Source of the DNA: Candidatus Uhrbacteria bacterium
Lineage (GTDB): Bacteria; Patescibacteriota; Patescibacteriia; UBA9934; GWF2-40-263
DNA: 51,628 nt
Assembly: GCA_016188495.1 (NCBI GenBank)
Contig: JACPHU010000005.1
Location: 1 to 51,628, forward strand
Direction: 5' to 3'
Shown here in pieces: positions 1 to 46,897 of the stretch. The notes below the pieces were generated by a model. That model ran no database searches and was not told the DNA's origin. It saw only the letters and a program-made list of their open reading frames with translations. Numbering within the stretch: position 1 is the first letter of the stretch; every line of letters begins with the position of its first letter. The translations under genes were made by a program, and so were the position numbers.

Positions 1-1
1 C

Positions 2-960: not shown

Positions 961-1090
961 GAGATTGTTTCAGAATTTGATGAGATTGCCTTGAACGGGC
1001 TGGCAGCCCCGGAAGACGTACCCAAACGTACGTCTTCCGGGGTGCCTGGGCGCCCGTGAAAGGCAAGATCGCAAATTCTGAAACAATCTC
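961..1090 (-). repeat. Structured intergenic repeat, copy A (130 bp)
   Basis: Perfect 19-bp terminal IR GAGATTGTTTCAGAATTTG/CAAATTCTGAAACAATCTC, core ATGAGATTGCCTTGAACGGGC...GCCCGTGAAAGGCAAGATCG, and apical hairpin CCCCGGAAGACGTAC/GTACGTCTTCCGGGG. Confidence 0.9.
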
Positions 1091-1095
1091 CATGA

Positions 1096-1182
1096 GCGCG
1101 GATGGTGGAATTGGTATACACGCCAGCTTGAGGGGCTGGTGCCAGCAATGGCTTGGAGGTTCGAGTCCTCTTCCGCGCACCA
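1096..1182 (+). tRNA. tRNA-Leu (GAG)
   Basis: Acceptor stem GCGCGGA/TCCGCGC, anticodon arm CCAGC-TT-GAG-GG-GCTGG, long variable arm, GTTCGAG T-loop and encoded CCA. Confidence 0.97.
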
Positions 1183-1215
1183 CAAAACACACTTCTAATA
1201 AGAAGTGTGTTTTGT
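1182..1215 (+). terminator. Hairpin terminator after tRNA-Leu
   Basis: ACAAAACACACTTCT-aata-AGAAGTGTGTTTTGT inverted repeat. Confidence 0.7.
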
Positions 1216-1225
1216 ATTGTGCTGA

Positions 1226-1353
1226 AGATCTCTACAAAACTCGCGATCTTACCTTTCACGGGCGCCTGTTGACCACACTCTCCCTATTCTAAATAGGGTT
1301 CGTATGGCTCAACAGCCCGTTCAAGGCAATCTCATCGAGTTTTGTAGAGATCT
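1226..1353 (+). repeat. Structured intergenic repeat, copy B (128 bp)
   Basis: 18-bp IR AGATCTCTACAAAACTCG/CGAGTTTTGTAGAGATCT, core CGATCTTACCTTTCACGGGCGCC...GCCCGTTCAAGGCAATCTCAT, apical CCCTATT/AATAGGG. Confidence 0.9.
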
Positions 1354-1409
1354 CTCTGGTATTGATTTATCTTTTTGGATCAAGTATTCTTTTAATCGTT
1401 AATATTTTA

Positions 1410-1486
1410 GGGCGTTTAGCTCAGCTGGTTAGAGCGCTTCGTTTACACCGAATAGGTCGGGGGTTCGAATCCCTCAACGCCCACCA
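1410..1486 (+). tRNA. tRNA-Val (TAC)
   Basis: Acceptor GGGCGTT/AACGCCC, D-arm GCTC/GAGC, anticodon loop TT-TAC-AC, GTTCGAATC T-loop and encoded CCA. There is one mismatch at the top of the anticodon stem. Confidence 0.95.
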
Positions 1487-1523
1487 CAAAAAACATCGAC
1501 TAAAGGTCGATGTTTTTTGTGGT
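1483..1523 (+). terminator. Hairpin terminator after tRNA-Val
   Basis: ACCACAAAAAACATCGAC/GTCGATGTTTTTTGTGGT inverted repeat. Confidence 0.7.
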
Positions 1524-1546
1524 GTCTTTTGTTATACTGAAGATCT

Positions 1547-1807
1547 ATGTCACCATGGATTCGTATTCCGCTAGGATTATTTATTATTGCTGTTGGTTTT
1601 TTGATGGTACAAAAAACGGACGTTTTTCTTTCTTGGTTTGGACGGATTCCATTTGCCGAGGATAAATTTGGTCCGGGCGGATCTCGTTTTTTTTATAAAC
1701 TATTAGGAATTGCGGTGGTATTCATAGGAATTTCTACGGCAACGAACGTTATCTCGGGTGTCTTAGAAGATCTCGCCGGACTTTTGACCCATACGAGTTC
1801 TTCCTAA
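1547..1807 (+). CDS. Small membrane protein (2 TM), unknown function
   Basis: 86-aa ORF with two hydrophobic helices. An extended -10 (TGTTATACT) lies 8 nt before the ATG. Confidence 0.8.
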   Translation: MSPWIRIPLGLFIIAVGFLMVQKTDVFLSWFGRIPFAEDKFGPGGSRFFYKLLGIAVVFIGISTATNVISGVLEDLAGLLTHTSSS

Positions 1808-1858
1808 GCTTGATCAGTTGGAGGGGTTTTGTTAATCTCTGATTACTATCAACCTCAT

Positions 1859-2281
1859 ATGCTTTCATTTTTTCGGCCAACGTACTGGTTCACCATGGAT
1901 CCTCCTCAAGTAGGAGGTCTTTTAGGAAATGCCGTTTTTGTCCTTTTTGTTCTGTGTGTGGTTTTAGGGGTTATTGGACATATTGTGACAGATCGTCACA
2001 AAAAGGACCGATACGTTCGCCAAATAGGGAAACGTGTTTCGACTCTTTTGGTCACAATGGGAATGTTGGGAGTCGCCTTATATTTTTTCAGTTTTGAGGA
2101 AATTCAGCTATTTGGAGCAAGGTTTTGGTATCCGGTTTGGATCATTGCGGTGATGGTTTGGACATTGCTGATTATACGGTTTGTCAGAATAGAGATTCCT
2201 CGGTCACAACAACAAACACAAACACGGCAAGCTATCGCTAAATATCTTCCTCGTAAAAAAGCCAAGAAGCATCATCGCTAA
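1859..2281 (+). CDS. Membrane protein (about 3 TM), unknown function
   Basis: Hydrophobic segments and a basic C-terminal tail. ATG at 1859 is preferred over the upstream TTG. Confidence 0.8.
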   Translation: MLSFFRPTYWFTMDPPQVGGLLGNAVFVLFVLCVVLGVIGHIVTDRHKKDRYVRQIGKRVSTLLVTMGMLGVALYFFSFEEIQLFGARFWYPVWIIAVMVWTLLIIRFVRIEIPRSQQQTQTRQAIAKYLPRKKAKKHHR

Positions 2282-2289
2282 GTTTGAGT

Positions 2290-2658
2290 ATGGACGAACG
2301 CAGACGCTTTGGTAATCAGGGAGAAGCGCTAGCGGCTGAATATCTGGAATCAAAAGGTTTTCGGATTTTGGAACGTCAATATACGCGACCTTACGGAGAA
2401 ATCGACCTTATTTGTCTGGATGGCGAAGAGGTCGTTTTTGTTGAGGTGAAGTCGCGACGAACAAATCAGTATGGGTACCCCGAAGATTCCGTGACTCCTA
2501 AAAAGATCAGGCACCTGCTTCGTGTCATTGAGGAGTATCTCGTCTCTTCGCGTTTTTTTGAAACACCTTGGAGGATCGATGTTGTCGCTATCGAGTTTTA
2601 TTGCCAGCCTCCGCAGGTGACGCATATCAAAGCTATTGACGTTCCTGAGAATTATTGA
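2290..2658 (+). CDS. yraN: YraN / UPF0102 family putative endonuclease
   Basis: G.QGE.LA..YL...GF.IL, GEIDLI, VFVEVKSR and RIDVVAI motifs. Confidence 0.92.
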   Translation: MDERRRFGNQGEALAAEYLESKGFRILERQYTRPYGEIDLICLDGEEVVFVEVKSRRTNQYGYPEDSVTPKKIRHLLRVIEEYLVSSRFFETPWRIDVVAIEFYCQPPQVTHIKAIDVPENY

Positions 2659-2729
2659 TATATTTTTTTTATCAGAAACCTGTCGGATCGACGGGTTTCT
2701 TTGTTAATTGTCGTATTTGAACTATTTCT

Positions 2730-3983
2730 ATGTCCTCACCTATTGAACAAGCGATTCGTCAGATTTGTGAAGAGAAAGGTCTTGCGTTTGAATCCGTGAT
2801 CGACGCTATCCAATCAGCGTTAGCGGCGGCCTATCGTAAAGATTTCGGTGATAAAAACAGTAACATCGAAGTTGAATTTGATCCTGCAACAGCTCAGTCG
2901 CGCGTTTTTGATATAAAGACCGTTGTAGAAGACGTGGACGTGGAAGAGCTCGAACGACTTGAGGAAGAGCGTAGACAATATGCAGAAAAGTTAGCGTTTC
3001 AAATCGAAGATGCACGCAGACGCGGAAGAGATATCCCTTCAATTTCTATTGAAGATGAATTAGGTCCTCGTTTTAATCCCAAAACAGACATCATGGTTTC
3101 CGAGGCCCAAGTATTAAAGATGGGTGCAAAAATCGGGGATGTGATTCGTACAGAAATGCCTACTCCAGGCGAGTTTGGTCGTATGGCCGCAATGACCGCC
3201 AAACAAGTCATCACACAAAAGCTTCGCGAGGCTGAACGAGAAGTGATCTTTAGCGAATTTAAGGAACATGAAGGTCAGATCATGAATGGAACTGTTCAAC
3301 GTCGTGAAGGCCGTGTAGTCCTAGTAGATTTGGGCCGCATTACAGGTGTCATGCGCCAGGAAGATCAGATTCCTTCGGAACGCTATAACACAGGGGATCG
3401 TATCAAGGTATTTGTTCGTCAAGTGAGCTTGACGACGAAGGGTCCGGAAATTCTCGTTTCACGTACTTCAGAGGAGATGGTTCGAACCCTTTTTGAATTT
3501 GAAATTCCAGAAGTCGCTGAAGGTTCGGTTCAAATTAAAGCCATTGCTCGAGAAGCAGGTTCCCGTTCGAAAGTGGCTGTTACCACATCCGATCAAAACA
3601 TCGATCCGATCGGGGCATGTATCGGTCAGCGGGGAACGCGTATCCAAACCATTATTGCTGAACTAGGTGGTGAAAAAATCGATATTGTCGAATGGAGCGA
3701 AAATCCTGCAGCATTTATTAGCAATGCATTGTCTCCTGCTAAAATTACAAAGTTAGAACTTCATAACAGTGAGAAAGCTGTTTTTGTAAAAGTCCAAGAA
3801 GATCAACTGTCACTTGCTATTGGAAAAGGCGGACAAAATGTTCGTCTAGCAGCTCATCTCACAGGTTGGAAAATTAACATTTCTGGAGACGAGGGGGTCG
3901 CACCTGAAGAAACTCCTGCACCAGAAGAGGCCGCTTCTCTCCCAGAGGATTCCGCTAAACAAGAATCAGAATCTCACGCCTAG
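2730..3983 (+). CDS. nusA: Transcription termination/antitermination factor NusA
   Basis: FGRMAAMTAKQVI.QK.REAER, S1 domain, AREAGSRSKVAV, GACIGQRGTRI and LAIGKGGQNVRLA KH motifs. Confidence 0.98.
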   Translation: MSSPIEQAIRQICEEKGLAFESVIDAIQSALAAAYRKDFGDKNSNIEVEFDPATAQSRVFDIKTVVEDVDVEELERLEEERRQYAEKLAFQIEDARRRGRDIPSISIEDELGPRFNPKTDIMVSEAQVLKMGAKIGDVIRTEMPTPGEFGRMAAMTAKQVITQKLREAEREVIFSEFKEHEGQIMNGTVQRREGRVVLVDLGRITGVMRQEDQIPSERYNTGDRIKVFVRQVSLTTKGPEILVSRTSEEMVRTLFEFEIPEVAEGSVQIKAIAREAGSRSKVAVTTSDQNIDPIGACIGQRGTRIQTIIAELGGEKIDIVEWSENPAAFISNALSPAKITKLELHNSEKAVFVKVQEDQLSLAIGKGGQNVRLAAHLTGWKINISGDEGVAPEETPAPEEAASLPEDSAKQESESHA

Positions 3984-3989
3984 AGACAT

Positions 3990-4742
3990 ATGGGGACACT
4001 TTTTCACAACGTTCTTTACGTACCTATTTTTAACCTTCTCGTTTTTCTCTACGAAATTCTTCCAGGAGCAGATGTTGGGTTTGCCATCATTGCCTTAACG
4101 ATCGTCATTAAGCTTCTTTTGTGGCCGCTCATGAACCAGTCTTTGCGTTCACAAAAAGCGCTTCAAACGCTTCAGCCAAAGATTGATGAATTAAAAACAC
4201 GTTTTGGAGACGATCGAGAAGGGCTATCCAAGGCCATGATGGAGCTTTACCAAACAGAAAAAGTAAATCCGCTTGCTTCTTGTTTACCCTTGCTTATTCA
4301 GTTGCCTGTTTTAATTGCTCTCTATCAAGTCCTTCTCGGGGGATTTGGAGCAGAAACACTCACGCAGCTTTACAGTTTTGTTTCTCATCCGGGTGAAATT
4401 AATCATGTTTTTCTAGGAATCGTTGACCTTTCCGTGGCCAGTGTTTACATGGCCGTTTTAGCTGGAATCTTCCAATTTGTTCAGACCCGCATGATGATGA
4501 TGCGCCGTCCACCCAAAGAAGTTCGTGGTTCTAAGGGGGCCATTGATGAAACGATGCTTGCGAGCATGAACAAGTCTATGCTGTATTTTATGCCTGTCAT
4601 GACCGTTGTGATTGGTGCAAGCTTGCCCGCCGGTCTCACTCTTTATTGGGTAACGGTTAATATCGTTTCTATTATCCAGCAACACATTATTTTTTCAAAA
4701 AACAATCCATCTGAGAAAGAAACAAAAATCGACTCTAAATAA
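3990..4742 (+). CDS. yidC: Membrane protein insertase YidC/Oxa1 (short form)
   Basis: GFAIIALTIVIKLLLWPL, LQPKI.ELK, NPLASCLPLLIQLP and PAGLTLYW motifs. Confidence 0.95.
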   Translation: MGTLFHNVLYVPIFNLLVFLYEILPGADVGFAIIALTIVIKLLLWPLMNQSLRSQKALQTLQPKIDELKTRFGDDREGLSKAMMELYQTEKVNPLASCLPLLIQLPVLIALYQVLLGGFGAETLTQLYSFVSHPGEINHVFLGIVDLSVASVYMAVLAGIFQFVQTRMMMMRRPPKEVRGSKGAIDETMLASMNKSMLYFMPVMTVVIGASLPAGLTLYWVTVNIVSIIQQHIIFSKNNPSEKETKIDSK

Positions 4743-4758
4743 AGAGTCGATTTTTGTT
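4721..4758 (+). terminator. Hairpin terminator overlapping the yidC stop
   Basis: AACAAAAATCGACTCT/AGAGTCGATTTTTGTT inverted repeat. Confidence 0.7.
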
Positions 4759-4761
4759 TAT

Positions 4762-4918
4762 GAGACCTCTACAAAACTCGATGAGATTGCCTTGAACGGG
4801 GTAACCCGTCCGAACGAACATAAGGCCGGGCGGGTCGACGACAGAGCCGTACTCACCGTACGGTGACGAGTCGATGGGGCCCCGTGAAAGGCAAGATCGC
4901 GAGTTTTGTAGAGGTCTC
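4762..4918 (-). repeat. Structured intergenic repeat, copy C (157 bp, carries a nested 30-bp hairpin)
   Basis: 19-bp IR GAGACCTCTACAAAACTCG/CGAGTTTTGTAGAGGTCTC with the same core as copies A and B. An extra hairpin lies at 4805-4834. Confidence 0.9.
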
Positions 4919-4937
4919 TGTGCTAAGATGCAAAGAT

Positions 4938-5864
4938 ATGGGTCACCAGACCGATTTAGAACAATCAGTCATGAGAACCATTCTTTGGTTTTCGTTGTTT
5001 TCTTATCCACTGACGGCTTTTGAATTGTGGAAATGGTTATTGAAGCCTCAGCGTCCTTACGATTTAATCGAAGTCTACTCTATCCTTGAAAAAAGCGACT
5101 GGCTTAAACAAATGCTTGAGACGTCTGAGGGTTTTTATGCCCTTAAAGGGAAACAGATTAATGAAATGGTTCGAGATCGTCAGATGCGATTTTTGGATGC
5201 GGAACGTAAGTATAAAATGTTGCGTCGCATTGCGAAGTTTTTTTATCTTCTTCCTTCTGTTCGTGCGGTTGGTGTAGTCAATACCATGGCGTGGTGGTCG
5301 ACAACCTCTCAGAGTGATATTGATCTGTATGTGGTGACAAAACCAGGATCTATCTGGTCTTCTCGTTTTTGGTTAGTGCTGCCGTTTTTTCTCACAGGAC
5401 AAAGACCCATGCACCACCAGCAACTCAGACAAGGAAAGGATCCGTTTTGTTTTAGCTTTTTTTCCACGACAGAACATCTTCAGATGGAACATCTGTGTTT
5501 TCCCAGGGATTATTACATGGCTTTTTGGGTAAAATCTTTAGTTCCTATTTTGGATCGCGATGGGAATTTTTCCGTTTTTCATCAGGAGAATCGTTGGGCC
5601 ACGCGCTTGTTGCCCAATGCCCATCCTCGCACGCATCACCGGTCTCACGTACCATGGACGATGCCGAGTCTGTTTTTTCCAGGTACATTTTTTGAGTCTT
5701 TTTTTCGGACTCTCCAACAAAAACGACTTCCACTTCAGCTTCGAACACTAGCCAATATTGATTCAAGGGTCATTGTCACAGATGAAGTGTTGAAGTTTCA
5801 TGAAAATGATCGACGCCTCCAATTTCGTGATGCGTTTGAATCTCTTCTTGAACGTTATTTATGA
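4938..5864 (+). CDS. Putative pol-beta-superfamily nucleotidyltransferase-like protein
   Basis: LPSVRAVGVVNTMA....SQSDIDLYVV resembles the hG[GS]x9-13DhD motif, with NT in place of GS. Start at ATG 4938, downstream of the repeat. Confidence 0.65.
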   Translation: MGHQTDLEQSVMRTILWFSLFSYPLTAFELWKWLLKPQRPYDLIEVYSILEKSDWLKQMLETSEGFYALKGKQINEMVRDRQMRFLDAERKYKMLRRIAKFFYLLPSVRAVGVVNTMAWWSTTSQSDIDLYVVTKPGSIWSSRFWLVLPFFLTGQRPMHHQQLRQGKDPFCFSFFSTTEHLQMEHLCFPRDYYMAFWVKSLVPILDRDGNFSVFHQENRWATRLLPNAHPRTHHRSHVPWTMPSLFFPGTFFESFFRTLQQKRLPLQLRTLANIDSRVIVTDEVLKFHENDRRLQFRDAFESLLERYL

Positions 5865-7126
5865 TTGCCTCTTTTGCCAATCTTCTGTTTCTTTGTTCCA
5901 TCTTTTTTTTGTCTTGGCAAACGCAATGGATCATCGGAAGCGTTTCGATTTCAGGGCAAGCGTCTTCCTATGGCGTTTTTTCTGTCTATGTTGTCGAAGT
6001 ATTTATTCTTTTTGCCTTTTTGCTCCGTCTCCGACAGCAAACGTCCCCGATGGTTCTTCACTCTTGGAAGACGTTGTCTTTTTTTCTCGCCATGGTTTTT
6101 TTCTCATTGAGTTTCAGTCACTTTACGCAGATAGGATGGTTCCAGGCGATCCATGTCGTTTCCGCTTCAATGTTGTATTTTTTAATCACAGACCAGCGCA
6201 CAAATATTAAGCAGGTTCTTTCGCTTTTTTTATTGGGTCTCATGGTTCCTGTAGCGCTGGGATGGTTCCAAGTGATTCGTGGCTCAAGTCCAGATTCCAC
6301 AACGCTTGGCATTGCGGCAAAAGACGTGTTTACCCCTGGTGTGGCGGTTGTTGAAACACTTGCAGGCCGTCTGATGCGGGCATACGGAACGTTTCCGCAC
6401 CCAAATATTTTTGGCGGTTATCTTGCTTTCGCGGTGATTGCTCTGGGGTATTTGAGTTTGCGATTAAAAAAACATGAGTGGGTGATGGGACTGGTGGGAG
6501 CTGCTGTTTTTGGAGCAACCTTGGTCACCACTTTTTCGCGTTCGGCATGGTTGGGACTTTTCATCGGATGTCTTGTTCTCATTGCTTTGATGTTTTGGCA
6601 AAAAAAAATACCTCCGCGACGAGCTCTTCCTATTTTGATGATTGGATTGGCGTCTGTGCTTTCAACACTGATATTGTTTCATAACCAAGTCTTTTCAAGA
6701 GTGTATCCAACTGGCCGTATCGAAGTGATTTCCATAGAAGAACGCGCTTCCCAATATCAAACGGTTGATGACGTTTTTTTGTCCGCCCCTTTTTTTGGCG
6801 TGGGTCCCAATGCTTACACGTTTGTTCTTTCGCAACGTGATCCGGGCCATCCCGCATGGTCGTACCAACCGGTTCATAACACGTTTTTGTTGATTCTCGC
6901 CGAGCTTGGATTAGTCGGAATACTTTTTTTTGGTTATTTTATTTTTTCGGTAAATCCCATCGCACATGCATCTGTACGGAAACCAGATGGAATGTTTGCT
7001 GTTATGATTGGTGTCACTTTTTTTGTGATCGCCCTATTTGATCATTATCTCTGGTCGTTGTGGTCAGGACTGGCATTGAGTGCCTTGGCCTGCGCAGTGA
7101 TGGTGCGATGGGAAAGAGATAAGTGA
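5861..7126 (+). CDS. O-antigen ligase / Wzy_C family membrane protein
   Basis: About 12 TM segments, with RAYGTFPHPNIFGGY, TFSRSAW, PFFGVGPNAY and PVHNTFLLILAELGLVG motifs. Confidence 0.88.
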   Translation: MIASFANLLFLCSIFFLSWQTQWIIGSVSISGQASSYGVFSVYVVEVFILFAFLLRLRQQTSPMVLHSWKTLSFFLAMVFFSLSFSHFTQIGWFQAIHVVSASMLYFLITDQRTNIKQVLSLFLLGLMVPVALGWFQVIRGSSPDSTTLGIAAKDVFTPGVAVVETLAGRLMRAYGTFPHPNIFGGYLAFAVIALGYLSLRLKKHEWVMGLVGAAVFGATLVTTFSRSAWLGLFIGCLVLIALMFWQKKIPPRRALPILMIGLASVLSTLILFHNQVFSRVYPTGRIEVISIEERASQYQTVDDVFLSAPFFGVGPNAYTFVLSQRDPGHPAWSYQPVHNTFLLILAELGLVGILFFGYFIFSVNPIAHASVRKPDGMFAVMIGVTFFVIALFDHYLWSLWSGLALSALACAVMVRWERDK

Positions 7127-7148
7127 ATATGGGATTTGTTTAAAATCA

Positions 7149-7177
7149 TTGACAAAATGTTGATTTTGTGGTTTAAT
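7149..7177 (+). promoter_or_regulatory. Sigma70 promoter
   Basis: TTGACA (7149-7154), 17-nt spacer, TG-G-TTTAAT extended -10 (7169-7177). Confidence 0.7.
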
Positions 7178-7343
7178 AGCAGGTCTTTTTTCTATCTACT
7201 CTAGCAAAAAGATGCTCTAAAAAGGGCGGTTTCTTGCCATAGTTGATTTATAGGACAATCTCTTCTCGTGAGAGAGGAACATTTCATAACTCCGGGTCTA
7301 CCAAGTTCGGAAAGAAAACGGCTATCAACCGGAAGGAGTTCGT

Positions 7344-7910
7344 ATGTTCAAGTATGGTAAATGGCTTGAGACGATCGTTAACCGATTCCGAGGCAAATCT
7401 GTCGTTTCCAAACCCGCCAAGCGCTGGCGGGAAGTCGATGGAGTGATCTATCTCACCGTCGTTTCCGACGGAACGAGCGGAGAAGCGTGCACATGTTTGG
7501 AGCAAAACAATGTTCGCTTAAGTGCAGATACAAAAAGTGTTTTGCATTCTTCTGGGGATTTTAAGCATACGAATGGTATACTCTACGAGATTGCCATTCT
7601 GAAGGGGGATCGTTTTTTAGGTATGACTCGGGATTTTTACCGGAAGGCGGGTGAGATGGAATTTACGATTCCGAACGCGGAAGTCGTCTGTCTCATCCGT
7701 AAGAATTTTACGGACAAAGAAATCGCGCACATGGGATTGGGTTATATTGTGGTGATGCGTCAGTTCGGGGATTTTGATGGTAAATCGAAGTTCCTTGCGG
7801 TTGGTCGAGGTGGTAGTTTGTTTACGTGCGAGGTTTATCCTTGTCACAATGACGTATGGCCCTGTGGAGGCGGGTTCGCGTTCCTCGCTCCATCCCAAAG
7901 GGATGTTTGA
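7344..7910 (+). CDS. Hypothetical protein with a degenerate DGR-target-like (C-type-lectin-fold-like) C-terminus
   Basis: AAGGAG SD and its own promoter and terminator. The C-terminus D.DG....LAV.R......W....GFAF parallels the end of the 10242 gene (DSDG...VFSV.R...W.....W....FVF). Confidence 0.7.
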   Translation: MFKYGKWLETIVNRFRGKSVVSKPAKRWREVDGVIYLTVVSDGTSGEACTCLEQNNVRLSADTKSVLHSSGDFKHTNGILYEIAILKGDRFLGMTRDFYRKAGEMEFTIPNAEVVCLIRKNFTDKEIAHMGLGYIVVMRQFGDFDGKSKFLAVGRGGSLFTCEVYPCHNDVWPCGGGFAFLAPSQRDV

Positions 7911-7918
7911 TTTTTCTG

Positions 7919-7962
7919 CGCCGTACTCCTGCTGACTTTCAACAGGAGTACGGCGTTTTTTT
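7919..7962 (+). terminator. Intrinsic terminator
   Basis: CGCCGTACTCCTG/CAGGAGTACGGCG stem followed by a T run. Confidence 0.85.
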
Positions 7963-7980
7963 GTTTTGAATTTTGATCCC

Positions 7981-8043
7981 TTGACAACAACCCTCGCTTT
8001 GAACACAATGAAACCGTTAGCACTCTTGGTATGAGACTGCTAG
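7981..8043 (+). promoter_or_regulatory. groESL promoter with CIRCE (HrcA operator)
   Basis: TTGACA (7981), N17, CACAAT (8004), then TTAGCACTC-N9-GACTGCTAG at 8017-8043 (consensus TTAGCACTC-N9-GAGTGCTAA). Confidence 0.9.
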
Positions 8044-8088
8044 CGTCTTTTTTCTCATAACATTATCTAAATTTTTAACTTTTTACTT

Positions 8089-10021
<1,933 letters not shown>

Positions 10022-10022
<1 letters not shown>

Positions 10023-10149
10023 AACCATTGCAAAACTTGCGATCTTGCGGTTTACGGGCGCCCGCTGACTCCACTCTCCCTATTGTGAATAGGGTTCGTG
10101 CAGCTCAGCAGCCCGTGCACCGCAATCTCATCAAGTTTAGCAAAGGTTT
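10022..10149 (+). repeat. Structured intergenic repeat, copy D (128 bp, most diverged)
   Basis: 18-bp IR with 2 mismatches. The core CGATCTTGCGGTTTACGGGCGCC...GCCCGTGCACCGCAATCTCAT carries compensatory changes. The apical hairpin is of the copy-B class. Confidence 0.88.
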
Positions 10150-10168
10150 AACAAAATTGTTTTTAAGC

Positions 10169-10196
10169 AAAACGAGAGGGTTCATCCTCTCGTTTT
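10169..10196. repeat. 28-bp hairpin (groEL terminator candidate); left copy of a direct repeat flanking the 10242 gene
   Basis: AAAACGAGAGG-gttcat-CCTCTCGTTTT; 24/28 identical to 12584-12611. Confidence 0.8.
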
Positions 10197-10241
10197 TGTA
10201 TATCTAGTGAATTTTGAGAGTTTTTGATACCATTCCCGCAT

Positions 10242-12455
10242 ATGAAAGAAGGATCGAACCCGGAGTTTCTCAGGCAAAAATATCAATTTGAAAAAACTGA
10301 CGAAGCAGATCGCGCCGTGAAGAAAAAGGAGCGGCGCGGCGAACGTGTCCGTAACATACCGTCCGAGCGTATCCAGGCGTATCTTGAGCGCTTGGATATC
10401 GTTATGAATCCGCCCAAGCTCGAAGGTCACGAGAGTTTTGATCGCAAAGCCCGCAATATTTCGATGATGAAACGCTTCATGCACGAAACTCTTATTGTGA
10501 AGCCAGACGTCGCTACCGATGAATATTTGGTGCACCAACAAAAACAAGAACGTGCTATGGGATATGGTGACGTTGATATTTCTGCAGATATCCGTGATCA
10601 GATCACGCATGCGGTAGAGGCTATCGCCAAAGGATCCGACATCCACCAAGAGCTTCAGGGTCTTGAGAACGAAAAAAAGCAGATGGCGGAAGAGATCGTC
10701 GCCAAGATTGAGGACCAAAAACGTTCTCTTGATAAATGGATCGATTATCTTGCAACTGATGATGCTGCAACCGCTTACCCCGACTGGTTCAGGTATTGGG
10801 CGATGCGCAGCGTTACCGGACTCTCAAGTTTTGATAAAGATACCAAGGCCTTTCCGTCCAGGGACGAAGAGACCATGAACCCGTTTCCGGAATTGGACCA
10901 AGCTGTTCTTGGAAAGGTTCGTGATCACGTTGAGCATGATCGTGCTTACAAGGAGCGTCTCGCGGCTTCTTTAGAGGAGTTGGAACGAGCAGAAAGAAGA
11001 CATAACCAGAAACGTCAAGATGCGGTCGCCCGATATCTTCAAGAGAACCATGTTGATCTACCCAAAGGAAAGGAGAATAAGGACAGACGTGCGGATATCA
11101 TGGGAAAAATATCCGAAGCCATCAATATAGCCCCATTTGATCCGTCGACGTTTGAAATTGAAACGCCTGTCGACGACCGCAATCTCGAACCAGAAGTTCA
11201 ATCAGCCTTGGATACCAAGGATTTTGCAAGGCTCTATGCCCTTGAATTTGCCAAGCTCATTCCGACCAGCGAAACGCTTCTTCATAACATTGTCGGACAA
11301 TGGGTGAAGTACAAACAGGGATCCGAACCCGCCAAGCTCGTGCAATCCATCGAACGCCACAAGACTGGTTGGTGTACCGCAGGCGAAGAAGTCGCTCGTT
11401 CCCAGCTCTCCCGCGGTGATTTTTACGTCTACTATTCGCAAGATGAATCCGGTACAAACAGCATTCCCCGCGCCGCCATTCGCATGGAAGACGATAAGAT
11501 CGCTGAAGTTCGAGGCATTGCGCCGGATCAGAATCTTGATCCGCATATCGCACCCGTCGTCGGAGAAAAAATGAAAGAATTTCCAGATGGCACGGCTTAC
11601 GAAAAGAAGGCCGCAGATATGAGACTCTTAACCCTCATCGAACAAAAAACCGTCGCTGGGAATCCGCTTACAAAACAAGAACTCTTTTTTCTCTACGAAA
11701 TCAACGTTTCCATTGAAGGTTTTGGTTACGATAAAGATCCTCGCGTCGTCGAGTTGCGCAAAGAGCGCAATACCGAAGAAGATATGTTCGTCGTTTTCGA
11801 GTGCGATGAAAGCCAGATCGCCCATTCGGTTGACCAGATTAACGAATCGACCAAGGCCTACGTTGGCAAGCTTGAGCCAGGCATCTTTGATCGCCTACCG
11901 AAAGATGTTGAGCATGTGTATACCAAATTCCCTGATGGATGCATTCGTCGCCAAAGCATTGAAATTGGAGGCAAGGATGAACGCGAGCTCAAGGAGCTTC
12001 TTGAGGGAAATTGGTATGAGATCTATTCGTATACCAAATCAATGATGGAACATGAGGATTTCAAACGCTCGCTTCGCGAGGCAGATCCGAAGCAACCAGA
12101 TTGGAAAAAGTGGAAGCTTAAATCATTGGAAGAGGCAAAGCTTGTCCGTTTACGAGTTGAAGATCTGGGATTTTCAAGCGGAGCGACAACGGATCAGATT
12201 TATGCGCGAGCGGAAGAACTAGGCCTTGAACTCTGTCCACCGGAAGTTGGTCCGCAGTTCCGTTTGCAGTACGTCAATCAGCCAATGAACGAATACGTTT
12301 ACGTTGGTATGAAACAAATCTCCGATTCCGACGGCAGCAGACGCGTCTTCAGCGTGGGACGCGGTGACGGCGGGTCGTGGCTCAACGGCAATTGGGCGCT
12401 GCCGACGGACCGGTGGGCTGCGAACAATCAGTTTGTCTTCCGTCTTCGCAAGTAA
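10242..12455 (+). CDS. Large hypothetical protein with a GWCTAG-motif domain and a C-terminal DGR-target-like variable region
   Basis: 737 aa. The C-terminus MKQISDSDGSRRVFSVGRGDGGSWLNGNWALPTDRWAANNQFVFRLRK is encoded by a GC-rich, NNC/NNT-rich stretch (12321-12455). An extended -10 lies 8 nt before the ATG. Confidence 0.85.
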   Translation: MKEGSNPEFLRQKYQFEKTDEADRAVKKKERRGERVRNIPSERIQAYLERLDIVMNPPKLEGHESFDRKARNISMMKRFMHETLIVKPDVATDEYLVHQQKQERAMGYGDVDISADIRDQITHAVEAIAKGSDIHQELQGLENEKKQMAEEIVAKIEDQKRSLDKWIDYLATDDAATAYPDWFRYWAMRSVTGLSSFDKDTKAFPSRDEETMNPFPELDQAVLGKVRDHVEHDRAYKERLAASLEELERAERRHNQKRQDAVARYLQENHVDLPKGKENKDRRADIMGKISEAINIAPFDPSTFEIETPVDDRNLEPEVQSALDTKDFARLYALEFAKLIPTSETLLHNIVGQWVKYKQGSEPAKLVQSIERHKTGWCTAGEEVARSQLSRGDFYVYYSQDESGTNSIPRAAIRMEDDKIAEVRGIAPDQNLDPHIAPVVGEKMKEFPDGTAYEKKAADMRLLTLIEQKTVAGNPLTKQELFFLYEINVSIEGFGYDKDPRVVELRKERNTEEDMFVVFECDESQIAHSVDQINESTKAYVGKLEPGIFDRLPKDVEHVYTKFPDGCIRRQSIEIGGKDERELKELLEGNWYEIYSYTKSMMEHEDFKRSLREADPKQPDWKKWKLKSLEEAKLVRLRVEDLGFSSGATTDQIYARAEELGLELCPPEVGPQFRLQYVNQPMNEYVYVGMKQISDSDGSRRVFSVGRGDGGSWLNGNWALPTDRWAANNQFVFRLRK

Positions 12456-12520
12456 CCCTTGAAGTCTTAGTCGCTTCTTGAAACTTTGTTTCTTTGATCC
12501 TTTGATATTTTTTATCGTTT

Positions 12521-12537
12521 ACCTGCGACAGGCAGGT
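12521..12537. repeat. Short REP-like hairpin
   Basis: ACCTGC-GACAG-GCAGGT in an otherwise AT-rich intergenic region. Confidence 0.4.
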
Positions 12538-12583
12538 CTCGTCGATTTTAGGAAAATCTTACCGTAAATTATTTTTTTTCAAA

Positions 12584-12611
12584 AAAACGAGAGGAGAGAT
12601 CCTCTCGTTTT
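12584..12611. repeat. 28-bp hairpin (terminator candidate); right copy of the direct repeat
   Basis: AAAACGAGAGG-agagat-CCTCTCGTTTT. Confidence 0.8.
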
Positions 12612-12663
12612 GCTTTAGGGAATCCCTCTAATCTGTTACCATGGTTTTAAACAAAATAAATAT

Positions 12664-13014: not shown

Positions 13015-13018
13015 ACAT

Positions 13019-14135: not shown

Positions 14136-14138
14136 TGT

Positions 14139-39720: not shown

Positions 39721-39843
39721 GGTTGTTCACATTGTGCATGTTTCATGAACATGAACACATAATACCGTTTTTTGTTCACACAATGATGTTCAGTGATTGA
39801 GAGATGTAAGAAAAAGGTTAACAAAAAAAGTTCTCAATTTAGC

Positions 39844-39874
39844 AAAAAACCGTTTGACGCTCAAACGGTTTTTT
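39844..39874. terminator. Bidirectional-type hairpin
   Basis: AAAAAACCGTTTGA-cgc-TCAAACGGTTTTTT. Confidence 0.75.
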
Positions 39875-40139
39875 GATTTCCTAACACTAGATCTACATCG
39901 ATCACTCTCTCGTTTGCAGGAGGAAACGTAAGAGGTCTCTCAACAACCTTCGGGTTTTCCAGAGGTCTCAACCGGAACGATAAAACGTTTCCAAATGCGT
40001 CGACGGGGTGAACGGTGGTGATGATCGTGAGCCGTTTTTCTGAAATAGGGGGCAGAAGAACGGGTCGACCCACACGGGCCGGTGCGCAAGATCTGGTGCG
40101 CCGCCCGGGAAGGTTGACCATTTTGGTACACCAACTCAT
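39861..40139 (-). CDS. Possible small hypothetical protein
   Basis: 92-aa ORF fills the gap divergent from the M23 gene and ends in the hairpin. No recognisable motif. Confidence 0.3.
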   Translation of the reverse strand: MSWCTKMVNLPGRRTRSCAPARVGRPVLLPPISEKRLTIITTVHPVDAFGNVLSFRLRPLENPKVVERPLTFPPANERVIDVDLVLGNQKTV

Positions 40140-40168
40140 GGACGCCTTTGCTCATGGGAGAGACCATC

Positions 40169-42115: not shown

Positions 42116-42210
42116 AAAGGAGGTGGAAGGGAGCGTAAAGAAAGCGTAACTTGTTTTTAAAATCAAAATGAAAAGGTGATGGTATGGGTGGTTAACCTTA
42201 CTCACAACGC

Positions 42211-42241
42211 AACCGGACATACGTATGTCCGGTTTTTCTTT
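42211..42241 (+). terminator. Palindromic terminator candidate
   Basis: Perfect 24-bp palindrome AACCGGACATACGTATGTCCGGTT followed by Ts. Confidence 0.7.
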
Positions 42242-42299
42242 CATTATCCCCATTGCGATGTCGGCGAAGATCTTTTTCGTGCTATACTTTTACTAGTTT

Positions 42300-45089
42300 A
42301 TGTCATGGGTTCTGTCCAAAATAAAGAAAATCCTTCACCAGAAATTACGAGCTGGACTCTTTTTTATTTCTTCTGTTCTTTTGTTTTTTGTCGGTTTGCC
42401 AGCTCATGCGGCAACTCTAAACGTGGATACCATCCTCCAGATGTTTGCCGAATTTGCGTTTGATATTGCCTCCGTCCTGACAAAAGCAATCGTGTTGCTC
42501 ATTGACGTCATGGTTCCAGTGATGACGTACAATAATTTCACAGGAAATCCTGTGGTGACGGCAGGTTGGGCCATTGTGCGCGATACCGTCAACATGTTTT
42601 TTGTGGTCGTTCTGATTATTATCGCGTTTGGAACGATTTTTGGACATTCTAAATTCAAATGGCAGCAACAGGTTCCCCGTTTATTGATTTTTGCCATCGT
42701 TATTAACTTCTCAAAGACATTGTGCGGAATCATGATCGATTTCGGGCAGGTGATCATGCTCACTTTTGCCAACGCACTTCGTGAAATCGCTGCCGGAAAT
42801 TTCATTCAGCTTTTGGGACTTAACCAAATTTATTCCGTAAGCCAGAGTTCTTCGGTCATTACCACCATTAAAGGCGAAGGCGGTTCCGGGGCTGGAAATT
42901 CTTTTGATTTTTTTGCCGCTGGTGTGATGTCCGTCATCCTCACGCTTTGGGTGTTAGGAACATTGATTATTCTTGTTGCTGTGCTGTTGTTTCGGATCAT
43001 CATGTTGTGGGTGTTGATTGTGATGGCACCTCTTGCCTGGTTTGTAGGTGGGGCCGGTGACATTATTAAGTCTGATGCCTATCAGGACTGGTGGAAGGAG
43101 TTTAAATGCATGGTGGCCGTAGGTCCTGTTCTCGCGTTCTTTTTATGGCTGACTCTTGCTGTTGCCGGAGCGGGAAACATTGCCGCAAACTCTGGATTTA
43201 ATGTGGGAACGAATTCAAACAATGCAGATTTCACCTCATCGTTGCTTGAATTAAATAATTTTCTCAGTTTCTTGATCGGCATGGCCCTGTTGTTTTCTGG
43301 ACTCAAAGCGGCTACGCAATTTTGTTCAGGCATGGCTGGCTCCATGATTAGTTCAGGCATCAATAAATATGCAAAACGCATTCCGCAAATCACCGCAGGT
43401 GTCTTAGGGGCGGGTGCGGCCACAGGTATTGGTCTTGGGTTAAAGGGGGGAAGCCTTGCCACGCGCGGAGTAGCTAAAGCTGCATATGCAACACCAGCAG
43501 TGCTTGCCGCTGCAGGACGATATGCCCCAGGTTCTGCCAAAGTTTCTCGTGCCATTAGTTCTGCAAAGGAAGGAGTAAAAACAGGAACTTACGGAGTATT
43601 AGAGAAATTTGGAAAGAAAACCGGTATTTCTCCGATTGAACGCATGGCCGCCAGAAGAAAAGGAACTGCTTCTGACACGGCTGGATTGGAGCGTGTGGCG
43701 GAAGTCAAGAAACAAAAAGAAGGTCTTAAAGGAATGTCACGTGATACGATTGCCGCTTTAGGAAGCAAATACGCAAATAATCCTTCTAGTACCAAAGTAG
43801 GAGAGGCAGAAGCCATGGCAATTATGGATCAAGCCATGGGAGATTCACGCTTGCAGAAGCAGTTGCGCGAATCAGGGGATCTTCAGAAGCTTTGGAAACA
43901 GCATGGAGAGAAATTTCAAAATGATTTTAAACATGATGCCGCAAAGACGGCTTCGATTAAGGATTTTAAGAAAGCAAATGCCGACTTTACCGGCAGTGCC
44001 GGCTTATTAAAGAATTGGGACGATGTGAAAGGTTTGCAAGACGATGCGTTGAAAGACGTGGATGTTCAAAAACATTTGAAACAGATGCAGTCCGGTTTTG
44101 TCACCAAGGACGGTCAGGCGATTTCTTCCTATGACGCGATTTTACAAGGTCGCGCAGATGCCAAGAAAGCCTCTCTTCTAGGAGGAATCGATGTTAAAAA
44201 TACAAACGTCGCTGAATTAAAAGCCGAGACGGAACTAGAAGGTCAGCTCGTACGGGCCTTAAATCACAATGACGTTTCGAGCGCGCAAAAAGTCATTACA
44301 GAAGTTGAGAAACGATATAATGATCCGGCAACATCCGATCAGGATCGATCCAGAATGGCTGTGTCTATGGATCGTATGCGTGCAAGTATTGCCAGAACTA
44401 AATCGCAGACGGCAATGGATACGCTGGCCGTATTTGATACCAAACGCTCGGCTATGGAAACCGCTTCCGGTTTAGGAGCTGTTCCTTTGATTGAGCGTGG
44501 AGACAGTCCTGAGTCGTATGTCACAGGACAATTTGGCGGAGCGACTCAGGGCCGCATCCAAAGGGCTATTGATCAATTTTCAACACAGGAATCTACGACC
44601 AGCGCGCAAGCGTCTCAATTGGAATCTCAGCGAGATGCATTGATTGGAACGCGCGCGGGTGTGTTGAAGCAGCGTATGGATCAAAAACAACAACAATTGG
44701 AAGCTGTACGCAGAAGAGTAGGAGCAGAGACTGAACAAGAAGTCACAAGGGCGATGCAAGATGTGCAGGCCGCTGAAGCCTTGCTTGCGGAAGCGCAAAA
44801 ATCAGGAGATGCCGCTGAAGTAGGTGCTGCGGAGAAAATGGTTCAGGATGCTCGCAATGTTCATGTTCAAAAGAAAATTCAAGCAGAAGATGCTGTAAAA
44901 GGTAATTTGGAATTGAATACGATTCAGTCAGAACTTGATAAAATGACTGATGCGGTGACCCAATTAAATCCAGAAGAGGTGGAGGGGGTAAAGGAAGCCA
45001 ATCGCCGAATCGCCGATCTTCACACACAGGCCGAAAAATTGAAAAAAGTACGTGAGCGTTTAGAGCAGCAAAAGGCAAAAAATGTTTAA
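42300..45089 (+). CDS. VirB6/TrbL-like polytopic membrane protein with a long C-terminal coiled-coil
   Basis: GWAIVRDTVNMFF, PRLLIFAIVINFS and RIIMLWVLIVMAPLAW..WWKEF patterns, a Gly/Ala-rich region, and position upstream of PrgI/VirB4. Confidence 0.75.
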   Translation: MSWVLSKIKKILHQKLRAGLFFISSVLLFFVGLPAHAATLNVDTILQMFAEFAFDIASVLTKAIVLLIDVMVPVMTYNNFTGNPVVTAGWAIVRDTVNMFFVVVLIIIAFGTIFGHSKFKWQQQVPRLLIFAIVINFSKTLCGIMIDFGQVIMLTFANALREIAAGNFIQLLGLNQIYSVSQSSSVITTIKGEGGSGAGNSFDFFAAGVMSVILTLWVLGTLIILVAVLLFRIIMLWVLIVMAPLAWFVGGAGDIIKSDAYQDWWKEFKCMVAVGPVLAFFLWLTLAVAGAGNIAANSGFNVGTNSNNADFTSSLLELNNFLSFLIGMALLFSGLKAATQFCSGMAGSMISSGINKYAKRIPQITAGVLGAGAATGIGLGLKGGSLATRGVAKAAYATPAVLAAAGRYAPGSAKVSRAISSAKEGVKTGTYGVLEKFGKKTGISPIERMAARRKGTASDTAGLERVAEVKKQKEGLKGMSRDTIAALGSKYANNPSSTKVGEAEAMAIMDQAMGDSRLQKQLRESGDLQKLWKQHGEKFQNDFKHDAAKTASIKDFKKANADFTGSAGLLKNWDDVKGLQDDALKDVDVQKHLKQMQSGFVTKDGQAISSYDAILQGRADAKKASLLGGIDVKNTNVAELKAETELEGQLVRALNHNDVSSAQKVITEVEKRYNDPATSDQDRSRMAVSMDRMRASIARTKSQTAMDTLAVFDTKRSAMETASGLGAVPLIERGDSPESYVTGQFGGATQGRIQRAIDQFSTQESTTSAQASQLESQRDALIGTRAGVLKQRMDQKQQQLEAVRRRVGAETEQEVTRAMQDVQAAEALLAEAQKSGDAAEVGAAEKMVQDARNVHVQKKIQAEDAVKGNLELNTIQSELDKMTDAVTQLNPEEVEGVKEANRRIADLHTQAEKLKKVRERLEQQKAKNV

Positions 45090-45092
45090 AAG

Positions 45093-45115
45093 AGACCTCT
45101 GCAATGCAGAGGTCT
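45093..45115. repeat. Short palindrome matching the outer arms of repeat copy C
   Basis: AGACCTCTGCA-a-TGCAGAGGTCT, compared with copy C ends AGACCTCTACA...TGTAGAGGTCT. Confidence 0.55.
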
Positions 45116-45126
45116 AAAAAGTGTTT

Positions 45127-46764
45127 ATGGTTGAGGAGGTTTCAACAACACAATCATCGCAAACAATAGACGAGAGAGTCGTTTCTGTTTTGCGTAGCGC
45201 TTCAACGTTCCAGTCATACGAAAAATTGTTGAAAGGGGTTGGGGTGCAAGATCCCAATCCCGCCTTTTTGGGCTTGGAAGTGTTTCGTCTTGTTCAAGGG
45301 AAAAAAAATGCCTCGTCGTTTATTCAGGTGCTGAAAGACGAATTAAGCCTTTCCGATGTCCAAGCGCGAACACTCGCTATTTCCATAGGTGCAGACCTTT
45401 TGCTTCCTTTAAATTCTTTTCTCTCCATCCCCGTGGGAACTCTCATGAAGGAATGGGGATCAAGTAGTGATGCATCACAGGAACTTTCACCAGAAACTTC
45501 TGTCACGGCGTACGTATCTTCCTTGCCTGGGGTTGAGGATGAACGTATGCGCCACCGATTTATCTCCATTCTCGTTCATTACGCGAAAGAGGATCGTTCC
45601 AGAGAAGAAACGAAGCTTCGTTTAATGGAGCCCATCTCGTTTAATGGACTTGGGTTTGATGAAGCGTTGGCGGAACAAGTTTTATCTGATTTTGATAAGA
45701 GCCATCAAGAAAAACGGCTTCAAAAAAAGCAGCAGATTACTGAGGTTTCTCAAGCTCCCGTGATCGAGACATTTACTCAAGAGGATGCAACAGAACTGGC
45801 TCAGGTCCAAACGCGCACATCAGATATTTTGAATGAAAAAGGTCCCGCGGATATTCCTTCTATGGTGAATGATATTTGCAAAGACCCCTCGTTTCATTTT
45901 GAAGAGCCAGTTTTACAGGATCGTTGTCGAACACTTATCGAATCCCGCGTGCGCGAGGTAAGGGATGCTGTCCAGGTCCGTTCGCAGCTTGAACGATCTA
46001 TCGATAAGGGCGGTCTAGGAGTTTCTGGTCGGCGCTTGGCAGATCTTTTAGAGAGGTTAGAGCATCACGTGGAGGTCTATCAGAGTCTTTTAGCTAAAGA
46101 ACAAAAGCAAGAGCAAACACAGGAACAGGAAGCAGTACAAATGAAAAAAGAAGAGAAAGCCCAAGCTCTTGAGCAGCACGCTCAAAAAGAAGAGCAGGTG
46201 TTATCCAAGCGTTACATTAGCCTTACAGGAAAAATGCCTACAGAACGGGTTTTGCCTGTGGCTCCTCCCATGAGCCGCACAAGTGCCGCTATTTCTGCGC
46301 AACACGAACTTTTGCAACATGAAGGCAAAATTGATGTGGCAAAGGTTCGGGCCGTTGTGGAGCAGGCAAGAGATCAACGTCCAGTTGCCTCTCAACCTAT
46401 CGGACGGCCAACCATGCAGGAGGTGACGTTCATCAAACGTCTTTCCGGGCCGCTGGATGAGTTGCGTGCATTAACGCTGGTTGATTTTCGGCGTCTTTCT
46501 CGCGATCCGATTCAATCGGCAATGAAAGTCAAAGATAAAGTTGATTTGATGGAAGAACAAGGATACGACAAGAAGGTTGAGGCGGTTGCCGCCTGGCGTT
46601 CTTCGCCAGTGAACCAGCTGTACGTCCAATTAACACGAGAGGCCGTCTTAAAAGGAATTTCTGTGAAAGATCTTCTCTTCCAAAAACGCGAACAAAAACA
46701 GGAGACATTTTCTGATGAGGAGTTGAATGCTCTCATGCAGCTGAACGCCGATCTTAGATTCTGA
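45127..46764 (+). CDS. Hypothetical soluble protein within the T4SS-like cluster
   Basis: Long helical ORF with internal repeats L..PI..NGLG / L.RSI.KGGLG and C-terminal GPLDELR.LTLVDFRRL. Confidence 0.85.
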   Translation: MVEEVSTTQSSQTIDERVVSVLRSASTFQSYEKLLKGVGVQDPNPAFLGLEVFRLVQGKKNASSFIQVLKDELSLSDVQARTLAISIGADLLLPLNSFLSIPVGTLMKEWGSSSDASQELSPETSVTAYVSSLPGVEDERMRHRFISILVHYAKEDRSREETKLRLMEPISFNGLGFDEALAEQVLSDFDKSHQEKRLQKKQQITEVSQAPVIETFTQEDATELAQVQTRTSDILNEKGPADIPSMVNDICKDPSFHFEEPVLQDRCRTLIESRVREVRDAVQVRSQLERSIDKGGLGVSGRRLADLLERLEHHVEVYQSLLAKEQKQEQTQEQEAVQMKKEEKAQALEQHAQKEEQVLSKRYISLTGKMPTERVLPVAPPMSRTSAAISAQHELLQHEGKIDVAKVRAVVEQARDQRPVASQPIGRPTMQEVTFIKRLSGPLDELRALTLVDFRRLSRDPIQSAMKVKDKVDLMEEQGYDKKVEAVAAWRSSPVNQLYVQLTREAVLKGISVKDLLFQKREQKQETFSDEELNALMQLNADLRF

Positions 46765-46767
46765 TAG

Positions 46768-46897
46768 GAGATCTTTTAAAAACTCGCGATCTTGCCTTTC
46801 ACGGGCGCCCACCGACCCCGCTCAACGTACGTTTTGGTACGTTGAGCGGGGTGCGGAGCCCGTTCAAGACAATCTCATCGAGTTTTTAAAAGATCTC
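46768..46897 (+). repeat. Structured intergenic repeat, copy E (130 bp)
   Basis: 19-bp IR GAGATCTTTTAAAAACTCG/CGAGTTTTTAAAAGATCTC with the same core. The apical hairpin is of the copy-A class. Confidence 0.9.

Follow-up and report, generated by a model that had tools for sequence, protein, structure and literature searches.

What kind of element is the long hairpin that recurs five times in contig JACPHU010000005.1 of a Candidatus Uhrbacteria bacterium from groundwater? The window analyzed here is that contig at its full 51,628 nucleotides, C18 among the 29 contigs of the source genome G000 (1,187,653 bp or 1.19 Mb, 44.4% GC, 96% complete). Each of its five copies, A to E, could in principle be mobile DNA, a structured RNA, or a site of use to the host. 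We show that copies of the element are mobile: their sites differ among congeneric species, they insert in both orientations, and they carry a target duplication of 3–5 bp. The reading that we favor, with a probability of about 0.6, is a non-autonomous mobile DNA hairpin family, similar to miniature inverted-repeat transposable elements (MITEs) in behavior and to REPINs (hairpins formed by doublets of repetitive extragenic palindromes) in logic, and confined to one Patescibacteria lineage.

The first-pass annotation of this DNA described five copies in three layers (an outer stem that varies in sequence yet stays paired, an asymmetric core that hardly varies, and tips of distinct classes), and this description held. 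All five copies lie at the coordinates and on the strands given, and the 3′ core pattern has exactly five matches in the window, which are these copies, against 0.03 expected from shuffles. Bit scores below are from R1, a covariance model that we built from 44 standard-length copies. Copy A (961–1090, minus strand; 133.3 bits) has a perfect 19-bp outer stem, the core helix TTGCCT/AGGCAA, and tip class A, a long ACGTAC hairpin. Copy B (1226–1353, plus strand; 141.8 bits) has a perfect 18-bp outer stem, tip class B (CTCTCCCTA..TAGGGTTCG), and the junction motifs CGATCTT at 1244–1250 and ATCTCAT at 1329–1335. Copy C (4762–4918, minus strand; 113.5 bits) combines a perfect 19-bp outer stem with tip class 3 (CCGTAC..GTACGG) and one nested GC-rich hairpin module of the CCCGCCCGG..CGGACGGG type, delimited at 4803–4834 (minus strand) by comparison of long with standard copies and found in five other long copies of the same genome. 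Copy D (10022–10149, plus strand) has the core helix TTGCGG/CCGCAA and an 18-bp outer stem with two mismatches, and copy E (46768–46897, plus strand) a perfect 19-bp outer stem and a variant of tip class A. The core strings, the nested hairpin of C, the helix swap in D, and the two tip classes, whose differences are compensated, are thus as claimed, as are the plus-strand open reading frames (ORFs) that flank all five copies and the presence of elements in both orientations. Folded as single strands, the four standard window copies reach z scores of −8.4 to −14.0 against dinucleotide shuffles, the last being that of copy A.

Genome-wide, pairing of the two core motifs yields 64 copies (36 on the plus and 28 on the minus strand), dispersed singly over 23 of the 29 contigs. 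They are non-coding and 127–234 bp long; the core-to-core length is 92 nt in 30 of them and 88–93 nt in 46, the remainder being longer through extra hairpins. R1 finds 74 distinct sense-strand loci, including minimal copies of ∼78 nt, and misses three 196-nt copies that motif pairing finds, so that the family has at least 77 copies in G000. The 64 motif-paired copies take up 9650 of the 1,187,653 bp. A very small, gene-dense Patescibacteria genome, with a median intergenic spacer of 51 nt, thus spends close to 1% of its length on one hairpin family, which is an unexpected repeat load.

Mobile copies and their spread

The site of copy E is empty in the congener G005, where the flanks abut around a single TGATA, whereas in G000 TGATA stands on both sides of the copy, at 46762–46766, where it overlaps the upstream stop codon, and at 46898–46902 (neither repeat is assigned a strand). 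Copy C is absent from the orthologous spacer in both G005 and G001. At the site of copy D, none of five congeners has an element 3′ of the ORF that copy D follows in G000, and G007 retains the stop codon and a terminator-like hairpin with nothing in between. In G001, tRNA-Leu and tRNA-Val are separated by 48 nt, and this counterpart of the copy B spacer holds no element. The first-pass annotation had pointed to orthologous loci as the place to look for empty sites, and copies B to E are indeed each absent from at least one of the congeners examined (G001, G005, and G007 among them).

Insertions are also found in the other direction. In G001, a different copy separates a pair of genes for which the window has a spacer of only 2 nt, and AATA stands on both of its flanks. 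Of 16 copies fetched from G007, ten lie at sites also occupied in G000, four at sites empty in G000, and two could not be placed; three of the four empty sites give clear duplications (TTTT, ATA, and TTTG/TTTA). Judged by flank coordinates alone, one site in G005 and one in G002 are empty in G000, and two G001 sites are shared. The five resolved cases therefore give target duplications of 3–5 bp (TGATA, AATA, TTTT, ATA, and TTTG/TTTA), and a minimal copy is flanked by ATTA on both sides. Furthermore, direct repeats of at least 6 nt flank 14 of 62 copies, whereas 200 shuffled pairings give 2.2 ± 1.5 such copies and never more than 8.

Nearly all 64 copies are intergenic; 24 of them directly adjoin a stop codon, and 8 a start codon. 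Where the flanking genes are co-directional, 26 copies point the same way as the genes and 17 the opposite way, and a further 14 lie in divergent and 4 in convergent spacers. Orientation is related neither to GC skew (28/8 versus 21/7; Fisher p = 1) nor to the local gene strand (p = 0.21).

Among 61 relatives (Uhrbacteria-labeled Patescibacteria, G000 counted), 40 carry the element, with 1 to 54 copies each. By rank, carriers comprise 8/8 genomes of the genus, 28/36 of the family, and 11/24 from six other families of the order. In an even sample at class level, 4 of 151 genomes carry it; two of these four lie outside the order, one of them with at least 22 copies. A pattern scan of one genome per species returned mostly metagenome-assembled genomes that bear the name Patescibacteria or Candidatus Uhrbacteria and are labeled 39%–59% GC, and R1 confirms 67 full or end-cut sense copies (62 loci) among the loci from other genomes. 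Some copy-bearing contigs are labeled Lentisphaerae or Gammaproteobacteria; their proteins are 56%–92% identical to those of G000, which indicates that these contigs belong to the same lineage. The phage and plasmid collections searched gave no match to the element. A single pattern match on an IMG/VR viral contig is due to chance: it has no R1 hit and lies within the last ORF of that contig (3989–5602), which we take to be a terminase.

The family was not recognized in the first-pass annotation. In Rfam, only two tRNAs reach the gathering threshold over the whole window, and at E values up to 10, positions 900–1400 give only weak hits (15.8–21.7 bits against thresholds of 56–102). A description of the family was not found in Rfam or in the open papers searched (main text), and the core strings occur in no paper of that literature.

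Pairing of the arms and layers of the hairpin

Covariation in the element is very strong. Among 44 standard copies, RNAalifold predicts 37 pairs, 28 of them with double changes; 95.1% of cells are paired, compared with 76.1 ± 0.6% when the 3′ partners are shuffled, and double-change cells number 281 against 65 in shuffles. None of 500 shuffles reaches any of the observed covariation measures, and sliding the partners by 1–3 columns lowers pairing to 29%–51%. The covariation noted in five copies thus holds in a larger alignment.

The pairing is of the Watson-Crick kind almost exclusively. In the outer stem and core helices of G000, Watson-Crick pairs fill 1338 of 1408 cells, G-T fills 9, A-C 27, and other combinations 34; in other genomes (67 copies, 62 loci), the corresponding figures are 1940, 26, 50, and 31 of 2047 cells. 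A helix selected as RNA is expected to tolerate G-U and to disfavor A-C. Here, G-T is rarer than A-C on the sense strand, and wobble is still rare when the antisense strand is read. Mainly because of this absence of a wobble preference, we take the pairing constraint to lie at the DNA level rather than in RNA. The first-pass placement of the element among structure-constrained repeats of the REPIN or MITE kind, acting as DNA, is thus upheld.

The alternative also raised there, an RNA motif, fares less well. As a cis-acting or small structured RNA selected locus by locus (an mRNA 3′ stabilizer, an RNase III site, or a terminator), the element would be suited by its very stable fold, by the 24/64 copies that abut a stop codon, and by the many sites retained between two species with pairing kept. 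The missing wobble preference argues against it, as does an orientation independent of transcription, with 14/64 copies between divergent genes; moreover, a separate terminator-like hairpin follows copy D and is present in a congener that lacks the element, and Rfam offers no match. We therefore regard an RNA role as very unlikely. The case carries a warning for covariation-based RNA discovery, since both approaches used here, covariance modeling and shuffling, rate what is a DNA element as a superb “structured RNA.”

The layers are constrained in different ways. The terminal arms are 19 bp long in 34 of the 64 copies and 18–20 bp in 53, and 37 are perfect, while the arm sequence is nearly unique to each copy, with a loose consensus (GAGATCTCTnCAAAACTCG) and two other subtypes. 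The arms are thus free in sequence and kept in length and mutual complementarity. Inward of them lies an asymmetric junction of invariant sequence, with CGATCTT in the 5′ half of the element and ATCTCAT in the 3′ half. Once the hairpin is folded, the two strings leave a TC/TC mismatch and a C/AT bulge; of the 67 copies compared across genomes, 63 have an intact ATCTCAT and 52 an intact CGATCTT. Next comes a 7-bp core helix, of which six or more covarying versions exist (TTGCCT/AGGCAA, TTGCGG/CCGCAA, TTGACG/CGTCAA, TTTCGT/ACGAAA, TTTGCG/CGCAAA, and TCAACT/AGTTGA), followed inward by a second small loop and a GGGC/GCCC helix. The apex is one of the three tip classes, with none in the copy at C12:18129 and a short unrelated hairpin in minimal copies. 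In 18 of 64 copies, one to three extra GC-rich hairpin modules sit at fixed points of the apex.

These modules are not restricted to the element. Two such units (33 and 47 nt, CCCGCCCG...CGGGCGGG; 87 nt together) lie in the D-loop of the sole tRNA-Arg(CCG) gene of G000 (C10, ∼42650–42807, plus strand), between ..GGATA and the 3′ D-stem AAGC. With the modules removed in silico, ARAGORN predicts a normal 76-nt tRNA-Arg(CCG); given the gene as it stands, it predicts a 79-nt tRNA with its 5′ end inside the modules. The same modules are present in partial tRNA copies beside the intact genes for tRNA-Ile(GAT), tRNA-Val(CAC), and tRNA-Arg(TCG) (C19:26541–26620, C21:16522–16600, and C2:1570–1700, the last on the minus strand). 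A 5′ acceptor and D-arm copy stands ∼40–60 nt upstream of tRNA-Ile(GAT) and of tRNA-Val(CAC), and a ∼65-nt 3′ tRNA copy stands downstream of tRNA-Arg(TCG). The position of the modules within the tRNAs is constant, between ..TA of the D-loop and the 3′ D-stem. Another module, together with tip class 3, occurs in a second hairpin repeat with a different outer stem (CGAAATC..GATTTCTTCG) and three copies, at C15:127200–127340, C10:34940–35070 (minus strand), and C12:8870–9010 (minus strand), so that module and tip are common to this repeat and the main element. The swappable tips of the first-pass annotation are therefore separate small hairpin units that settle in the loops of other hairpins, a point that it had overlooked.

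How a resident copy evolves can be followed at the ten sites common to G000 and G007, whose flanking DNA is ∼82%–89% identical. Over the 133 outer-stem positions of the seven same-orientation pairs, 102 are unchanged, 21 have changed in both arms with pairing kept, 7 have changed in one arm, and 3 fall into other categories; in one pair, a 2-nt deletion is mirrored in both arms. Interiors change as well. One site has a GACG-type core helix in G000 but a TCGT-type helix in G007, and at four of the ten sites modules are present in one species only. At the remaining three sites the element stands in the opposite orientation and is of another subtype. Together, these paired double changes, differing interiors, and inversions indicate that, in a resident copy, the arms stay complementary, the interior is exchanged, and the orientation can be reversed. 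Such a natural experiment, with pair-keeping double changes, mirrored indels, and flips, and with no wobble intermediates, separates templating or hairpin selection at the DNA level from selection on RNA.

Two processes would keep the arms paired. Template switching between the arms of an inverted repeat reportedly homogenizes the arms and inverts spacers (PMC8604942) and has been proposed to create and maintain hairpins (PMC8794818). The apparent structure selection can also stem from arm-to-arm templating within the inverted repeat, which the first-pass annotation did not consider. Selection for a foldable DNA strand would keep pairing equally well.

Candidate enzymes and the case against

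The fixed distance from junction to tip (19–20 bp), together with the free sequence of the tip, suggests an enzyme that binds the junction and makes a measured cut. Under our favored reading of a non-autonomous mobile hairpin, such an enzyme would read the invariant junctions and cut at a fixed distance (∼19–20 bp) outside them, and a cut so measured could explain why the tips drift in sequence but not in length. Complementarity of the arms would be kept since the substrate would be the folded single strand or a cruciform; alternatively, template switching between the arms during replication may copy each change to the other arm, and this could also account for the flipped interiors. Exchange of interiors might proceed through gene conversion, with the conserved junctions as anchors, or through the insertion of smaller modules. 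Should the enzyme be found, the invariant mismatched junction and the 19-bp ruler would constitute a new mode of recognition. A bolder scheme, possible although we hold it doubtful, is a multi-scale ecosystem of hairpin parasites, in which modules of 33–50 nt nest in 130-nt scaffolds and in tRNA D-loops, propagated either by an unrecognized structure-specific enzyme that reads the asymmetric mismatched junction and cuts at a measured distance or by a replication-linked route that needs no transposase. If true, it would amount to a new transposition chemistry or substrate logic in minimal episymbiotic bacteria.

The first-pass annotation saw no cognate transposase in the window; this stands, and none that tracks the element was found in G000 either. 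Ten transposase families were profiled (PF01797, PF13610, PF01610, PF01609, PF00665, PF13359, PF12762, PF00872, PF13358, and PF07282). The candidate that fits REPIN logic is a Y1_Tnp gene (IS200-like, 290 aa; 56.7 bits) at C6:5195–6124 of G000 (locus L136, 972–1905). If a domesticated HUH Y1 transposase, comparable to the REP-associated tyrosine transposases (RAYTs), moved the folded single strand during replication, then a long hairpin with compensated changes would be expected, as reported for REPINs (PMC3116915), and Y1 homologs are indeed present in 34 of 61 relatives, in several copies in some. However, the gene is bracketed by a perfect 29-nt inverted repeat of its own, which bears no relation to the element and is found only there in the genome, and the distribution of its homologs does not follow that of the element: G055 lacks the element but has 12 matches, whereas G007, G030, G014, and G049 have the element and no match. 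Nor do the 3–5-bp target duplications suit such an enzyme, as Y1 enzymes of the IS200/IS605 type are not known to make any, and orientation shows no bias with GC skew. We consider this route quite unlikely.

The other families fared no better as candidates. IS6, IS256, and the TnpB zinc ribbon were each found in 0/5 genomes, IS1595 in 1/5, DDE_Tnp_1 in 13/61, rve in 14/61, and DDE_Tnp_4 in 1/61; DDE_3 gave a single hit, in G000 and below threshold, and ISL3 gave only fragments at G007 contig ends, with ends that differ from the element by eye. The IS1595-family transposase ORF of G000 (C14:35133–35549, minus strand; 296 aa, 158 bits) has no flanking inverted repeat of 12 nt or more. An IS4-like element with a 341-aa transposase beside a half copy in G003 (locus L174, G003:C57, 1297–2640) proved to be inserted into the left arm of that copy, with an ∼11-bp direct repeat (CTTTGAATCAC). 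Among the genes between paired copies no recombinase or transposase motif was seen, no family search having been run on them; by their motifs, we take some to encode a LexA-like repressor, RNase III, and NusB, and the others to be ordinary conserved genes or unnamed ORFs. The occurrence of GATC in both the junction and the stem consensus likewise led nowhere, since GATC is not avoided in the genome (observed/expected 1.01).

The genome does have an insertion sequence (IS) of its own (C8:53933–54870), which spans ∼940 bp, has the ends GCCGTGAACCCAWAAATTCA, and encodes a DDE_Tnp_1 transposase of 283 aa. It also lies at the ends of contigs C4, C9, C10, C20, C22, C23, C25, and C26, with at least six copies, all at contig ends, and three matched flank pairs give 4-bp target duplications (ACAG, TCAA, and CTAA). 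This IS explains many of the assembly breaks.

Several results weigh against a mobile family served by an enzyme of its own. None of the ten profiled families tracks the element across the genomes tested (5 to 61 per family); the nine non-Y1 families (IS6, ISL3, DDE_Tnp_1, rve, DDE_Tnp_4, IS1595, IS256, DDE_3, and TnpB) are absent from several near-complete, element-rich genomes, and none of the nine was found in the near-complete G013, which has 31 copies. The ends of the ∼940-bp IS are unlike those of the element (the best local score is 22, and the maximum in shuffles averages 19.8 ± 2.3), which speaks against it as a parent. No copy with coding cargo and no solitary end was seen in G000, and 80 loci from other genomes hold no coding cargo, all 121 matches there being full-length or cut by contig ends. 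As to insertion itself, a scan for target duplications at fixed offset and length gave no signal, and at many copies none is visible; those seen are short, variable, and AT-rich. Set beside the excess of flanking repeats, this suggests a duplication that is short, somewhat variable, and lost in many copies. Ten of the 14 resolved G007 sites are also occupied in G000, which means that many insertions are old or that the sites are hot spots. Finally, arm templating alone would be expected to symmetrize the conserved junction mismatches; their persistence argues that some selection acts on them, for the benefit of the element or of the host.

A benefit to the host leads to a further alternative, in which the element is a cruciform or hairpin bound by a lineage-specific protein, in nucleoid organization, replication, or recombination, that spread as mobile DNA and was then kept. 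Consistent with this, the junction motifs are invariant across genomes labeled 39%–59% GC, G000 and G007 have 10/14 resolved sites in common, at which the arms have undergone paired changes, and elements persist in streamlined genomes of ∼1 Mb. The range of 1 to 54 copies per carrier within one genus, with none in 21/61 relatives, fits a dispensable element instead, and the binding protein is a supposition, so that we think a host site unlikely.

Relation to known repeats and neighboring features

Small palindromic repeats as such are already known. What is unusual here is the Watson-Crick-only covariation, the paired evolution in place with flips, the modules shared with tRNA D-loops, and the minimal setting in the candidate phyla radiation. 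Bacterial MITEs include Correia/NEMIS, ERIC, RUP, and the Rickettsia palindromic elements. Like them, the element is 100–200 bp long, with terminal inverted repeats, short target duplications, and the potential for a long hairpin, and it shows insertion polymorphism between relatives and location at gene ends. It is short, non-coding, and dispersed, and its target duplications are matched by empty sites; an autonomous parent with the same ends was found neither in G000 nor in the 80 loci. Unlike those of the bacterial MITEs, however, its terminal repeats are conserved in pairing and length only, and its subfamilies are defined by covarying helices and nested modules.

Bacterial interspersed mosaic elements (BIMEs) are mosaics of a few short palindromic motifs in intergenic DNA. 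The element resembles them as a mosaic of such motifs, but these are nested in one large hairpin rather than arranged in tandem, and the sequences are unrelated.

The first-pass annotation also drew an analogy with integron attC sites. The conserved extrahelical or mismatched bases within a variable stem bear it out, and recognition by structure, if it operates here, would be a further likeness. The remainder of the analogy fails: copies are single and dispersed, outside arrays and without an orientation rule, and they carry short target duplications. As a literal explanation, attC-like sites used by a tyrosine recombinase would share the logic of a variable paired stem, conserved unpaired bases, and fixed length. 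Yet the copies, in both orientations over 23/29 contigs, form no same-direction cassette arrays (intI was not searched for), and they adjoin what we read, from size and sequence, as conserved genes and tRNAs; with the target duplications, this makes such sites extremely improbable.

The REPIN comparison extends to short non-coding intergenic hairpins in tens of copies, to conserved recognition parts beside parts kept in length and pairing only, with frequent compensatory changes (PMC3116915), and to long persistence within a lineage. The two differ in layout, as the conserved part of the element is subterminal and the free but paired part terminal, the reverse of a REPIN, and in the target duplications and exchangeable interior modules of the element. 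The REPIN/RAYT pairing is missing too, in that the Y1 gene is not flanked by element repeats and the two do not co-occur across the 61 genomes. Quasipalindrome correction by template switching shares arm homogenization, mirrored multi-base and indel changes, and spacer inversion (PMC8604942 and PMC8794818). It is a mutational process and not an element, however, and accounts neither for insertion at new sites nor for the surviving mismatches.

As for the surroundings of the copies, copies A (minus strand) and B (plus strand) are inverted relative to each other, with a tRNA-Leu GAG gene (1096–1182) between them, and a tRNA-Val UAC gene lies at 1410–1486. Several further copies, in this and related genomes, adjoin tRNA genes. 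Copy D begins directly past the stop codon of a 543-aa ORF (8391–10022), presumably groEL, a label that comes from its size and its 96-aa upstream neighbor; the intrinsic-terminator-like hairpin 3′ of copy D is at ∼10171–10198.

The copies break assemblies, in that unitigs end at them, and the modules disturb tRNA gene calling. In contigs from four DNA runs, compared with window positions 1–11000, depth peaks and unitig breaks coincide with the copies, and no contig bridges an empty site. At window position 400, contigs of runs X1 and X3 carry a 19-nt insertion behind that position in part of the depth, which points to a strain variant in the source community.

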